In this document: piece by piece, positions 557-4,650 of the stretch | Layout of the letters: the number at the start of each line of letters is the position of its first letter | Numbering within the stretch: position 1 is the stretch's first letter | Source: Octopus sinensis | Taxonomy: Eukaryota | NCBI RefSeq assembly: GCF_006345805.1 | Contig: NW_021828531.1 | Span: forward strand, 1 to 8,175 | Length of the DNA stretch: 8,175 nt | Reading direction: 5' to 3' | Position numbers and translations under genes: made by a program | The notes under the pieces: generated by a model | What the model was told of the DNA's origin: nothing | Seen by the model: the letters and a program-made list of their open reading frames with translations, nothing else | The model's database searches: none

Positions 557-742
557 TATGTATGTATGTATGTATGTATGTATGTATGTATGCATGTATG
601 CATGTATGTATGTAGTATGTATGTATGTATGTATGTATGTATGAGTATATATATATATAATGATAATAATAATAATAATAATATTAATCAATAATAATAA
701 TAATAATAAATAATTAATAATAATAATAATAATAATAATATA
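553..742. repeat. Compound microsatellite (TATG)n-(TA)n-(AAT)n
   Basis: Directly visible. Confidence 0.95.
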
Positions 743-1109
743 TTAGGGAATAAATTCCAAACTTACATGGAAAATTAGATTTAGGATTAAATCCAATTTT
801 ATAGTATAAATATATTATATTATAATTAGAGATTAAAAACCACTATTAGGCAAAATCAAACAGTGAAAAAACATAAGCCAATACATAAAATTAATTTCAA
901 AATAGAAAAGTTAAAAATAAAAAAAATTATTTAAACTTATAAATTTTAAATATATATATATTACAAATATTATATATATATATATGTATGTATTTTATAT
1001 TTTATATATATTTTATTAATTAATTAATTTTTTTATTATTATTAAAAAAAAATTTTTTTATATAAATATCAAAAGTATTAAAAGTTTAATAAAAGATAAA
1101 GAGTAAAAC

Positions 1110-1200
1110 ACTACGATCGTTTCATGCCTGTACCAATTCGAATAACAATAATTTAAATTCAATTAATAATTCGAGTTATGGTTACAGTCAATCTTCAGGT
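1110..1200 (-). ncRNA. Type I hammerhead ribozyme with extended stem II (near-intact)
   Basis: Minus strand reads AC-CTGAAGA-ttgactgtaacca..tcgaat...attcga..tggtacaggcat-GAAA-CGATCG-TA-GT. Both conserved core boxes present, palindromic stem III ACGATCGT, GUA cleavage triplet, 2-bp stem I, long imperfect stem II with a U-U mismatch at its base. Confidence 0.75.
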
Positions 1201-2137
1201 TAATTGAAATATTTTAAAAATAATCAGAAATATTTAAACAATATTTTAAAGATATAGATAATATAACAATTTTACTTATAATAAACTCTATTATCAAACT
1301 AGAAACTTAAAACTTAACAATTATGATTATATCAAAATCGATTATAATGTTAAATATTAATTTTAATTTATAAGGTAAGAAACCCACCAATAATCTAATA
1401 TCGGTAATAGTCTATATCTAATTACATAAATATAAAAAAAAAATGACTATTATATATAAATTATCAATGAAAATATATAAATGTATATACATATTATAAT
1501 TAAGATCTAAAATAATCTCTATAAATAAATATATATGCACATATAATAAAGACCTAATAAATTAATTTTTCATATTTAAGATGAAATAGCTAATTTCAAA
1601 AATACAAACAAACAAACTTAAACGAACTTTCGGAAATCTTATTTAAAATACTTATAGAAATAATCAATTCGTAGTTATATAGTATCGAATAAATACTATA
1701 AATACTATAAATATATTTATCAATGGGAATATACTAGCGAATATCAATTTAAAAAGACAATAACTAAGTTATGCTATTAACATGGCCTGGACCAATCTTT
1801 GGTCAAAACATATCTAAGTTTATCTAAGTTTATCTAATTTTAATTATAAGAAATTTAAAACTACAATTAATACTATTAATACATGTATATACAAAAACCT
1901 AACTTTAGACACCTCGTATACTTGCTATCAAACAACAAATCTATCGCTAAGTAATATCTTACGAATAAACTTAAATTTAATATCTAATAATATAGAAAAT
2001 TACGATAATTAGATCATTACATAAACAACGATATTTACATAAGAAAAATATTATTACACCAAAGACTTATAAAATATTAAAATTTACAATTTAAAGATCT
2101 TAAATATAAATAAATACTTATCTTAGCGAGGTTTTTA

Positions 2138-2220
2138 TATTTTGGAAATTGCTAATACGTGTGTTCCACACTAACCCATGGTCTCTGATCTGCTCCCGGG
2201 CAAATACATATCCGATATAT
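2138..2220 (+). repeat. 83-bp dispersed direct repeat, copy 1 (element terminus)
   Basis: 81/83 identical to 3824-3906; both run into (AT)n. Confidence 0.95.
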
Positions 2221-2330
2221 ATATATATATATATAATTAATCAATATAGGGTGGCAAAAAATTTTGTAGAATTTTTTTGCACCAGCGGCCTAGTGGGAAA
2301 AAAATTAAATAGTCAGACCATTTTAAGTTC

Positions 2331-2403
2331 AAATCAAGTCAATCTTCCATAGGCCCTTAGATTACTGACGAATCTAAGGGCCTATGGAAGATTGACTTGA
2401 TTT
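2331..2403. repeat. Perfect 33-bp inverted repeat with 7-nt loop
   Basis: AAATCAAGTCAATCTTCCATAGGCCCTTAGATT (2331-2363), loop ACTGACG, exact reverse complement at 2371-2403. Confidence 0.97.
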
Positions 2404-2457
2404 AATTTAATCAGGTTAGTTTACCATTAAACAGTAGATGAAACGGTGCTCGTATAA
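2362..2457 (+). ncRNA. Type I hammerhead ribozyme, intact core, large stem II loop
   Basis: TTA(2362-64)-CTGACGA(2365-71)-ATCTA(2372-76)...TAGAT(2435-39)-GAAA(2440-43); stem III ACG/gtgct/CGT; GUA triplet (2452-54); TAA (2455-57) pairs with TTA as stem I. Confidence 0.8.
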
Positions 2458-2583
2458 GAAATTACAGGGTAAATGTTTTTTAAATTTCTCCTGGTTTACG
2501 GAATTAATGTTTTTTTGCCGGTTTGAAGCTTTGGCTGTTATTTCTAGTGGGTGAATGGCCTATTATGGCCGTTCCTTGATGTG

Positions 2584-2682
2584 ATATATATATATATATT
2601 ATATATATATATATATATATATATATAATATATATATATAATATATATAAATACATAAAAAAATTGAAATATATATATATAT
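2584..2682. repeat. (TA)n microsatellite, interrupted
   Basis: Directly visible. Confidence 0.9.
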
Positions 2683-2733
2683 AAGGTTGCTTTCCAACCA
2701 CATAGTTCCGGGTTCAGTCCCACTACGTGGCAC
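2683..2733 (+). mobile_element. SINE family A head fragment
   Basis: TTGCTTTCCAACCACATAGTTCCGGGTTCAGTCCCACTACGTGGCAC aligns to 5232-5278. Confidence 0.8.
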
Positions 2734-2831
2734 TGACCTGAGGCTATAGGAGAAGACATTTGTCCAAGGTACCCCGAGTGGGACTGAAGCCGGAACCATG
2801 TGACTGGGAAGCAAGGTTCTAACTGCACAGC
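2734..2831 (-). mobile_element. SINE family A 5' part, reverse orientation
   Basis: Reverse complement aligns to 399-495 and 5215-5312. Confidence 0.8.
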
Positions 2832-2969
2832 CATGGCAACGATAAAAGATGATTGTGCGAATGCTAGATACTAAGTTGCCAATGTGACCTTACCAAAATC
2901 AAGACCACAATAAAAATGCTGTGTTTTTTTTTTTATAATTTCTTTTTCTTATTTCTATTTACTTTCCAG

Positions 2970-3062
2970 GCAGACTACAAAATGAAGCTGACAGCAATCG
3001 ACAGACACACGAAGAAAGTCAATTTGTGTATGTCATGGGAGATGTCCATAAAAGCATCTTAA
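2970..3062 (+). CDS. Candidate terminal coding exon of a host gene (ADYKMKLTAIDRHTKKVNLCMSWEMSIKAS*), tentatively ML-domain / GM2-activator-like C-terminus
   Basis: Long polypyrimidine tract (~2925-2967) ending TTTCCAG|G; open phase-0 frame to TAA 3060-62 in the only non-repetitive island nearby. The DY-x-hydrophobic-K...D...C-hydrophobic pattern recalls the last two beta-strands of ML domains (weak, by eye). Alternative: a 58-nt internal exon using GTATGT at 3028. Confidence 0.45.
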   Translation, partial: ADYKMKLTAIDRHTKKVNLCMSWEMSIKAS

Positions 3063-3072
3063 GGATTGGGTG

Positions 3073-3113
3073 TTTCTCTCTCTCTCAATCTCTCTCTTTC
3101 TCTATCTATCTAT
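3073..3113. repeat. (TC)n/(TATC)n microsatellite
   Basis: Directly visible. Confidence 0.85.
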
Positions 3114-3189
3114 CATCAAAACACACAAAATGACGGACTCATTTTAATGAGTAAAACTTAATTGTCCTGAAAATACACACATGCATTCT

Positions 3190-3303
3190 TACATACATAC
3201 ATACACACATACATACATACATACATACATACATACATACATACATACATACATACATACATACAGACAGGCAGACATACATATGTATATATATATATAT
3301 ATA
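3190..3303. repeat. (TACA)n-(TA)n microsatellite
   Basis: Directly visible. Confidence 0.95.
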
Positions 3304-3423
3304 ATATAATAACAAAGGGTAAAATTAATTAATTAAGAAGTATTCAACAATTTTACCTAGTAGAATTCGGTATGAAAAAGGACCATTTCAACGGTAACCT
3401 TTATTAGTAACCCTTTTATTAGT

Positions 3424-3700
3424 ATATATATATATATATATATATATGTGTGTGTGTGTGTGTGTGTGTGTGGTGTGTGTGTGTGGTGGTGTGTGTGTGT
3501 GTGTGTGTGTGGTATGTGTATATATATAATATATATATATGTATGTGTATATATATATATTTATATATATCTGTATATAGATATATATATACATATATTC
3601 ATTCATTCATACATACATACATACATACATACATACATACATACATACATACATACATACATACATACATACATACATACATGTGTGTGTGTGTGTATAT
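3424..3700. repeat. Compound microsatellite (TA)n-(TG)n-(TA)n-(TACA)n-(TG)n
   Basis: Directly visible. Confidence 0.95.
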
Positions 3701-3906
3701 GCAGTGAAGTCGTGTCAGTGACGAGGACGCAGTTGGAGCAACGAAAATTTTAAGACCAAATAAATGTTCAAGTGAAATTAACGGTCTTTGTTTTATTTTA
3801 TATTGTTATACTTTTTATTTTTTTATTTTGGAAATTGCTAATACGTGTGTTCCATACTGACCCATGGTCTCTGATCTGCTCCCGGGCAAATACATATCCG
3901 ATATAT
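3701..3906 (+). mobile_element. Short non-coding element with degenerate hammerhead-like motif and the shared 83-bp terminus (copy 2 at 3824-3906), element 3
   Basis: GTCa-GTGACGA(3718-24)...GTTG/CAAC-GAAA(3743-46)-ATT-TTA-AGAC, then AATAAA (3759-64), a T-rich tract and the terminus shared with 2138-2220. Confidence 0.5.
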
Positions 3907-3911
3907 GTATA

Positions 3912-4209
3912 TCCCCGTGATCACCGCGACCGACCAGGCTATCAGATGTTGCTACACATCGCTGGTCACAATGCGCTTCGCATTGTTTTATCCTTCAAAT
4001 GACGCCACCCCGCTGGCTAAGCGAGCAGGCCAACAGAGGAAAGAGTGAGAGAAAGTTGTGGCCAAAGAGTACAGCAGGGATCGCCCCCCCCCCTGCCGGA
4101 GCCTCGTGGAGCTTTAGGTGTTTTCACTCAATAAACACTCACAACGCCCGGTCTGGGAATCGAAACCGCGATCCTACGACCACGAGTCCGCTGCCTAACC
4201 ACTGGGCCA
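3912..4209 (-). mobile_element. tRNA-derived SINE family B, near full length
   Basis: Minus strand begins TGGCCCAGTGGTTAGG (A box) and has GGTTTCGATTCCC (B box); GC-rich ~300-bp body inserted in AT-repeat context. Confidence 0.85.
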
Positions 4210-4215
4210 CATATA

Positions 4216-4566
4216 TATATATAAAAGGAAATGAAGAAAATGCTGACAAAATAATTTAAGTAATTTAAGTAATTTAATTAGGTGAAAGTTCTTTTTACCG
4301 GTTGCGTATTTGTTATGCTTATCAAAATATATTTTTTAAAGAGAGATTAGATTTCCTTTTTGATAGATTTTTTTCCTCTTATCTGATAAGAGGAAAATCT
4401 ATCAAAATCTATCAAAATTTATCAGAAAGAAACTCTAATCTCTCTTTAAAAAAATATGTTTTATAAGCATAACAAATACGCACCGTTAAAAAGAACTTTC
4501 ACCTAATTAAATTACTTAAATTACTTAAATTATTTTGTCAGCATTTTTCTTTCCTTTTTTATATAT
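4216..4566. repeat. ~350-bp imperfect fold-back palindrome (element 4), apex at 4384
   Basis: Left arm ~4216-4383 and right arm 4385-~4566 are reverse complements, e.g. GCTGACAAAATAATTTAAGTAATTTAAGTAATTTAATTAGGTGAAAGTTCTTTTTA vs its rc at ~4487-4542; centre TTTTCCTCTTATC-T-GATAAGAGGAAAA. Each arm holds a decayed minimal HHR-like motif. Confidence 0.92.
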
Positions 4567-4650
4567 CACAACTCGTGTTCCACATCTCCTTTTTTAAATA
4601 TATATATATATATATATATATATATATATGCATCAGTTGTACCTGTCCTA

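Follow-up and report, generated by a model that had tools for sequence, protein, structure and literature searches.

Penelope-like elements (PLEs) with hammerhead ribozymes in their pseudo-long terminal repeats (pLTRs), retrozymes, and Hydra elements in octopus are already known as kinds of elements, and Hydra and Naiad PLEs with (TA)n targets have been recorded for Octopus. In L1 twin priming, one RNA is primed by two target 3' ends, and microhomology joins the inverted arm. For PLEs, it was published that the tail is frequently found on one end only (PMC8557442, PMC3846280). The Poseidon protein of the anole, which is predicted to be dimeric, cut and extended both strands in vitro and used two internal RNA start sites bounding the tail; hammerhead mutants of this element still inserted in vitro (PMC11167929). 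The origin of inverted, tailed PLE insertions and the question whether PLE enzymes move animal retrozymes are stated as open (bioRxiv 10.64898/2026.07.22.740005, PMC8557442, PMC7229834, PMC11167929). Here, contig NW_021828531.1 of Octopus sinensis (assembly GCF_006345805.1) was analysed over its whole length of 8,175 nt, hereafter called the window, together with searches of the 2.72-Gb genome. The window is a mosaic of microsatellites and repeats, in which mobile-element ends are piled up in an AT microsatellite, namely two PLE tails (Hydra and Neptune) and one insertion of a non-coding 487-nt element.

A first-pass annotation of this DNA had described four segments (1, 742-2220; 2, 2232-2584; 3, 3701-3906; 4, 4216-4600) as sequence-distinct, non-coding hammerhead elements bounded by microsatellites, and had interpreted all of them as non-autonomous, ribozyme-processed retroelements mobilised by PLE enzymes. 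The observation as well as the interpretation were each supported in part. Beyond the known kinds of elements, the analysis adds one retrozyme (segment 2), which is probably undescribed so far, two unusual hammerhead cores and a sharp rule of PLE integration.

A non-LTR retrozyme in the octopus genome

By sequence criteria, segment 2 is a real retrozyme of the type without long terminal repeats (non-LTR). An exact 28-mer of this segment has 3,805 matches in the genome; the sample studied here comprises 40 inserts, obtained from 39 clusters that cover the first 100 listed matches and were chosen by position. The repeat unit is 487 nt long with 37% GC, and arrays reach about eight units. Over 2.5 units, the longest stop-free frame has 60 codons, and the predicted fold of the circular unit gave z = -4.9 compared with 60 shuffles. 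Units differ by 0.8% within loci and by 6.1% between loci (medians), and the nearest neighbour of a unit lies in its own locus in 32 of 38 cases. With regard to a coding partner, no arm was found to run into coding or shared sequence among the 40 inserts and the top 30 matches.

The hammerhead of this unit contains a 68-nt stem II segment. Among 28 copies with a complete hammerhead, the core showed 0 substitutions in 306 alignment cells compared with 104 in 3187 cells downstream, where the copies had been chosen via a tolerant pattern that spans the core, and three rows with an indel in GAAA stand outside the substitution count. Position N7 varies (A in 14, T in 8 and C in 6 copies). Stem I consists of 7 bp, three of which are changed on both sides, stem II has one such pair, and 97% of the cells pair. 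The covariation score was reached by none of 500 shuffles and the number of changed pairs by 55 of 500, for cells which are not independent and are inflated in number, as the copies share kinship. We conclude that the predicted type I fold is conserved and under selection, with compensatory changes in stems I and II. The short stem I noted for segment 2 in the first-pass annotation is an artefact of truncation: in the window copy the 5' strand of stem I was lost at the inversion joint.

The hammerheads at 1110-1200 (Hydra element) and 2362-2461 (retrozyme) have two features in common: their core halves are separated by a segment of 68 nt, and stem II has at its foot a base pair that is unpaired or variable. 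No BLAST similarity was found between these two regions of the window. The common features are a weak hint at a Hydra-type helper. Another candidate helper is a young Neptune family, termed B and seen at loci L298, L299 and L300, which has an open frame of 784 amino acids for reverse transcriptase (RT) and endonuclease, a separate open reading frame 1 (ORF1) and a tandem array of 4.4 kb.

We also observed a second retrozyme-like family, which is very young and has a tandem unit of 362 nt (L333, G000:C2:41417438-41420766, and L307-L335). It has a U3:A8 hammerhead with a 6-bp stem I, a circular fold with z = -7.6 and ends 63 nt apart. An origin from Neptune-B was ruled out for it, as the element at L329 merely adjoins it across (TA)n. 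The flanks of L004, L011, L100, L103, L141, L221, L228, L233, L241 and L278 contain many hammerhead-like motifs of type I from further families.

Paired use of two end sites

Each family has two fixed end sites, A and B, of which B is the end of the tail. In the retrozyme, outer ends lie at unit positions 225-233 (A) or 327-332 (B), and the A-B tail measures 104 nt. Twenty-eight of the 40 retrozyme inserts are two-armed and head-to-head; all 25 that are classifiable combine one A end with one B end (binomial 3e-8), and three have one unclassifiable end. In the Neptune family, 21 A/B inserts and one A/A insert were found at 29 loci, and in the Hydra family (40 loci) three of three cases were A/B. 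The 362-nt family yielded 22 A/B inserts among 22 classifiable ones (28 loci, with 2 unclassifiable and 4 one-armed inserts), although it was sampled by a query containing the B end, which leaves A/A inserts under-sampled. Over the four families, 71 of 72 classifiable two-armed inverted inserts are A/B, and segments 2 and 4 of the window both follow this pairing. Because free choice of sites predicts A/A and B/B in half of the cases and this was seen in 1 of 72, the simplest reading is that A and B are each held once, on one RNA, by a protein pair.

Among the two-armed retrozyme inserts, 53 of 53 classified ends lead into TA-rich sequence, compared with 358 of 7800 control 16-mers. In the 25 classifiable inserts the A-arm is nested in the B-arm in 11 cases, the B-arm in the A-arm in four, and neither holds in ten, i.e. 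14 of 25 have an A-arm that is not nested. Arms that do not overlap, as in L1 twin priming, were found in L229, L245 and L258, and B-arms of just 9-20 nt stand beside long A-arms in L224, L225, L230 and L233. A-arms run through B sites before they stop at A in L251 and L238. Within one insert the arms differ at 96 of 6389 positions (1.5%), compared with 4.4% to other loci. At L042 (positions 805-808; G000:C19, near 17564228), an A-arm of the 487-nt family is joined head-to-head and without TA to a B-arm of the 362-nt family, which suggests a helper enzyme common to both families. Inversions turning at the hammerhead were dismissed as a rule; they were seen in top matches picked by likeness to the window, and in the sample chosen by position the inner joints lie across the whole unit.

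Probable twin priming and alternative explanations

The two-armed inserts probably arise by twin target-primed reverse transcription on one RNA, once from A and once from B, by a PLE enzyme pair that cuts both strands. The retrozyme RNA would cleave itself out of tandem transcripts and circularise, and the RT would roll round the circle and thereby lay down arrays. A dimeric PLE protein would occupy the A-B stem-loop region of one RNA so that each target strand primes at one site; RT primed at B would displace the cDNA primed at A, and the two cDNA 3' ends would be joined head-to-head through microhomology. For this, the retrozyme may borrow a (TA)n-targeting Hydra or Neptune enzyme. Hammerhead cleavage would be dispensable in the Neptune family, whose core carries A13C.

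Several observations count against this proposal, in addition to the limits given above for the hammerhead and pairing counts. The two-family joint of L042, a single case, requires two RNAs, and the Neptune insert L156 is A/A. Comparison of the retrozyme unit with the ends of Hydra, Neptune-A and Neptune-B elements gave no match and no shared terminus, and homogeneous arrays are equally expected from multimeric transcripts of an array that was already homogeneous. For anole Poseidon in vitro, the two strands showed no difference in start site, each strand being scored in bulk (PMC11167929). Finally, a cDNA that starts at B might fold back and copy itself, to be resolved by the endonuclease at A; unequal arms would then result from deletions at the palindrome centre and from array slippage. 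We regard such snap-back as unlikely, but it deserves consideration, as self-priming and endonuclease-mediated resolution of tails have already been suggested in print (PMC3846280, PMC8557442). Neptune-A inserts are mostly near-perfect hairpins with small loops, variants are common to both arms of one insert, and the simple form fits those 11 of 25 retrozyme inserts in which the A-arm is nested in the B-arm. With asymmetric loss at the palindrome centre, or a later change of unit number, it also yields unequal or non-nested arms. This requires large one-sided losses, however, of more than 1 kb in L226 and L238 and of nearly the whole first arm in L224 and L225. Snap-back is unable to produce the joint of L042, and the B-arm in the window lacks unit positions 54-224, which are present in the A-arm. 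In addition, both ends of the tail serve as RT start sites in vitro (PMC11167929).

The nature of segment 2 itself can also be read differently. It might be the amplified pLTR of an ORF-coding PLE outside the samples, with arrays formed by local duplication; segments 1 and 4 also looked non-coding at first and turned out to be PLE ends, and the examined inserts are 40 plus the top 30 of about 3,800 matches. This is improbable, since the tandem unit is closed at 487 nt and free of ORFs, compared with about 4.4 kb for that of a coding Neptune element, no arm extends into shared coding sequence, and arrays at dispersed loci stop at the identical two sites. Even less credit, close to none, can be given to the view of the four segments as non-autonomous, ribozyme-processed retroelements throughout. 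In its favour, they are all multicopy, (TA)n bounds three of them and each has a hammerhead or hammerhead-like fold; RT and endonuclease frames, however, continue from segments 1 and 4, which refutes it for both, the segment 4 core carries A13C, and segment 3 is old and lies mostly away from (TA)n. Segment 2 remains as the one retrozyme among the four, and twin priming as the probable origin of its two-armed inserts.

Composition of the window

The following features were assigned in the window.

742-2135, minus strand: 5'-truncated 3' untranslated region (UTR)/pLTR of an ORF-coding Hydra-clade PLE (family 1), ending in (AAT)n at site B (742)
742-799, minus strand: tail of about 58 nt bounded by the end sites A (~800) and B (742); at L126 the tail continues into the region just upstream of the ORF
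1110-1200, minus strand: predicted type I hammerhead of segment 1 with its core at 1198, a stem II segment of 68 nt, a stem III that is palindromic and a stem I of only 2 bp
2136-2220, plus strand: 3' half of segment 3, duplicated locally (97%) and joined head-to-head with the 5' end of segment 1
2232-2361, minus strand: retrozyme insertion, inverted B-arm, unit positions 332 to 225, jump, 53 to 14; (TA)n at site B
2362-2584, plus strand: retrozyme insertion, forward A-arm, positions 5-228 of the 487-nt unit; (TA)n at site A
2362-2461, plus strand: retrozyme hammerhead (type I); this copy is truncated so that it lacks the 5' strand of stem I, and its stem III is one base short
3700-3906, plus strand: old repeat (family 3, ~230-270 nt), here as a diverged and decayed copy; the common form of the family resembles a minimal hammerhead with G3:C8
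4216-4382, minus strand: 3' end of a Neptune-clade PLE (family 4), inverted A-arm without tail; better copy of the hammerhead homologue at ~4295-4325
4383-4600, plus strand: Neptune 3' end (family 4), forward B-arm, with a 34-nt tail at ~4567-4600, then (TA)n
4867-5094, plus strand: GIY-YIG-type PLE relic, clade left unassigned, not Neptune family A; no Pfam match
5634-6128, minus strand: Hydra-type PLE endonuclease relic with CxCx5C, CxxC and CxH; weak Pfam GIY-YIG match (E 0.086)

In the entire window, CUGANGA cores occur just twice, at 1198 on the minus strand (segment 1) and at 2365 on the plus strand (segment 2), each followed by GAAA..UA. A hammerhead descriptor scan of 742-4600 found two complete type I folds, compared with none in all 200 dinucleotide shuffles. 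The Rfam covariance-model scan that had been recommended as a check matched no hammerhead family in the window among 55 matches with E up to 10; its microRNA matches were dismissed, as they stem from microsatellites and palindromes. Of the type I hammerheads, intact or decayed, ascribed to the four segments, those of segments 1 and 2 are retained, segment 4 carries a hammerhead homologue with A13C, and segment 3 has a decayed hammerhead-like fold. A conserved core and stem covariation were found in segment 2; the core of segment 4 reads GCAA and the covariation of segment 3 is weak.

Other elements of the first description hold. The palindromic stem III sequences ACGATCGT, AAAATTTT and ACCGGT are present in the segments, all four segments lie in or beside (TA)n/(AAT)n in the window, and all are multicopy, with 1610, 1636, 43 and 1428 first-look candidates for segments 1, 2, 3 and 4. 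The proposed PLE connection and (TA)n targeting were confirmed by segments 1 and 4, which run into RT and endonuclease frames, and by TA-rich sequence at the ends. The label non-coding applies to segments 1 and 4 only through 5' truncation, as both are ends of coding elements. Termini shared with ORF-carrying PLEs were found for segments 1 and 4 and none for segment 2. The interpretation as non-autonomous retroelements applies to segment 2 only; segments 1 and 4 are pLTR or 3' ends of autonomous PLEs, an outcome which the first-pass annotation had itself named as contradicting it.

The two endonuclease relics of the window were rejected as parents of segments 1 and 4. The Hydra relic shows 44% identity over 43 amino acids to the parent of segment 1, and tblastn gave no Neptune-A match in the window; by this comparison, the relic at 5634-6128 belongs to another family than segment 1. 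Four tandem copies of 187 nt (96%) at 6210-6955 read like an RT fragment of a long interspersed element (LINE), for which Pfam gave nothing. Abundant repeats, which we take to be like short interspersed elements (SINEs), lie at 327-585, 2684-2876, 3901-4209, 5215-5600, 7291-7702 and 7719-8131. One of these SINE-like repeats is a tandem pair of 180 nt, and such copies are frequent in the flanks of unrelated loci.

PLE ends and their hammerheads

Segment 1, which extends from 742 to 2135, is assigned by its sequence relatives to an ORF-coding PLE of the Hydra clade, whose 3' pLTR/UTR it forms. In the best 30 loci of this family the hammerhead region is 97-100% identical, and copies end at either ~800 (A) or 742 (B). 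Beyond 2135 the copies diverge from the window, and several extend past this position into other sequence. Among ten extended regions, L126 comprises a pLTR, then an RT and GIY-YIG frame that is frameshifted, and a UTR of 2.2 kb that leads to the segment 1 end. Read in three frames, L126 shows KWK (in place of RWK), DKT, CxCx5C, CxxC, CxH and, at the C terminus, a GIY-YIG domain, although the frame is broken and a Pfam scan of it gave no RT match. As the motifs of this single broken copy fit the definition of the Hydra clade (PMC8557442, section 11), the parent was assigned to it. The family shows a partial-tandem pLTR, a hammerhead and a (TA)n target. Its hammerhead has a canonical core and a stem I of 2 bp, and conservation of this motif is weakly informative, since this region served to select the copies, which are also young. 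Asn-rich low-complexity inserts were observed between RT and endonuclease in Hydra-type frames, at 4150-4750 of L126 and in L132; comparable inserts are known from rotifer Penelopes (PMC3846280).

Segment 4 reads as the 3' end of a young Neptune-clade PLE. The window copy is a hairpin, one arm of which bears the 34-nt tail. Of 30 pattern matches taken in order of position, four possess an upstream part that is not inverted, and two of these reach an endonuclease frame. A protein search found young copies of this family (Neptune-A) with open frames of 635-705 amino acids, RT, a C-terminal GIY-YIG domain and a CX2-5CxxC linker; in L294, Pfam RVT_1 and GIY-YIG both score above the cut-off. All 30 of 30 Neptune-A endonuclease loci continue into the segment 4 end ~1.0-1.2 kb downstream. 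The assignment to Neptune rather than Nematis was made because of the linker motif and the separate ORF1. An origin as a miniature inverted-repeat transposable element or DNA foldback was ruled out by the same-sense continuation into the RT and endonuclease frame, and the CTGA at the hairpin tip was ruled out as a hammerhead core, since the tip differs among copies.

The segment 4 motif comprises U3:A8, a 4-bp stem II, GCAA and the palindrome ACCGGU. In place of GAAA, GCAA (A13C) occurs throughout the family, i.e. in 30 of 30 endonuclease-linked Neptune-A copies, and another base at position 13 was found in 13 genome matches only, one of them with A. At the same place, the sister family Neptune-B (72% amino-acid identity, 784-amino-acid frame) has U3:A8, a stem II that differs but is paired, GAAA and an identical palindrome. 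Because the sister family holds the GAAA version there, we conclude that the motif is a homologue of the hammerhead which carries A13C. Natural variants with U3:A8 are known, and A13 is taken as invariant in the same reports (PMC4209133, PMC3088659). Ribozyme processing of the segment 4 family appears doubtful.

Segment 3 is an old, decayed repeat of unassigned parent, with best matches of 73-84% identity, short matches aside. Its common form has stems I and II of 6 bp each and G3 with C8; in the 15 least-diverged matches, G3 with C8 occurs in 13 and C3:G8 in none. In an alignment of 26 of 30 loci (L082, L085, L087 and L088, being partial or duplicate, were left out), 78% of the cells are paired compared with 12-53% when the fold is slid, yet 72 of 500 shuffles reach this value and 10 of 500 the covariation. 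The window copy is decayed with G3/G8, and the family lies near (TA)5 in 8 of 44 loci only. Inverted two-armed copies were found at at least 4 of 15 loci. PLE coding sequence near the 44 loci amounts to one weak Hydra match (E 6e-4) and one Neptune match in opposite orientation. A C3G/G8C swap gives partial rescue of cleavage in vitro (PMC11167929), and the odds that segment 3 represents a dead PLE end whose natural hammerhead has G3:C8 are, in our view, about even.

The segments are not all sequence-distinct, as the piece 2132-2226 is 96% identical to 3818-3912, with two genome matches only, both inside the window. This piece is not part of segment 1, which had been drawn to 2220, since segment 1 copies stop matching at 2135. 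The duplicate (2136-2220 and 3818-3906, 97%) may have arisen through a template jump onto nearby DNA at insertion or from an older duplication, or may be an artefact in the assembly of a small contig.

Comparison with known systems

In a joint reading, which we put forward tentatively and judge slightly short of probable, PLE integration would take place through coordinated twin priming, in which a dimeric protein on one RNA would direct one cut strand to A and the other to B; this would explain the tail, the head-to-head inversions and, with a circular retrozyme RNA, the tandem arrays. The octopus genome, with at least two undescribed retrozyme families, would then have recorded this mechanism, one joint would identify RNAs on which a single enzyme has acted, and PLE hammerheads would include natural cores with A13C and with G3:C8. 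A literature search, for which subscription papers were mostly out of reach, found neither the A/B exclusivity nor the paired-priming reading, and nothing on cephalopod retrozymes or PLE twin priming; the families may already be catalogued in Repbase or Dfam. The word 'ribozyme' has no occurrence in the accessible part of an octopus repeat annotation of 2026 (PMC13282606).

The retrozyme resembles animal non-LTR retrozymes in its short, ORF-less, low-GC tandem unit with one type I hammerhead, in its dispersed monomers to multimers and in a strongly self-paired circle, which is predicted here; PLEs have been proposed as helpers for those retrozymes, as for segment 2 (PMC7229834; bioRxiv 10.64898/2026.07.22.740005). 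It differs in its 487-nt unit, the 68-nt stem II segment, two-armed head-to-head arrays, fixed A/B ends, the 104-nt tail and (TA)n targets. In the accessible parts of both sources, two-armed arrays, fixed ends, tails and (TA)n targets are not reported, and 'inverted' and 'cephalopod' have no occurrence in that of PMC7229834. Homology to the pLTR of a partner was described for 24 of 57 Xenopus retrozyme families (PMC7229834; bioRxiv 10.64898/2026.07.22.740005), whereas segment 2 gave no match to the Hydra, Neptune-A and Neptune-B ends.

The parent of segment 1 agrees with described Hydra-clade PLEs in the RWK-like, DKT, CxCx5C, CxxC and CxH motifs, the C-terminal GIY-YIG domain, the canonical hammerhead core and the (TA)n target (PMC8557442), and departs from them in its 2.2-kb 3' UTR, Asn-rich insert, 2-bp stem I and 58-nt tail. 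Its hammerhead differs from that of Hydra-1_Obim, given for Octopus bimaculoides (PMC8557442, supplement), and it is likely a different family; five short motifs sought in this supplement were not found, the long sequence runs there not being covered. The parent of segment 4 shares with Neptune-clade PLEs the CX2-5CxxC linker, a CCHH-type endonuclease, a separate ORF1, a pLTR with (here 34-nt) tail and inverted 5'-truncated copies. Its hammerhead differs from described ones in the family-fixed A13C besides U3:A8, a change not met in the accessible parts of PMC4209133 and PMC3088659. This young family is a natural test of the need of PLE hammerheads to cleave.

The closest mechanistic parallel is Poseidon of Anolis carolinensis, which has in common with the present families two RT start sites bounding the tail, cutting and extension of both strands, AT-rich targets and a hammerhead that is not needed in vitro; exclusive use of A with B per insertion is not reported in the accessible part of that study, which includes no non-autonomous RNA (PMC11167929). 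The short repeat unit of the retrozyme serves as a ruler which is absent from coding PLEs, and its PLE hallmarks together with the near-absolute pairing of A with B allow a direct prediction to be made for the in vitro PLE assay already available. Compared with L1 twin priming, the start sites of the PLE inserts are fixed and lie 34-104 nt apart, and the arms may overlap for kilobases; the template of the two-armed retrozyme inserts was likely circular or multimeric, unlike that of L1.

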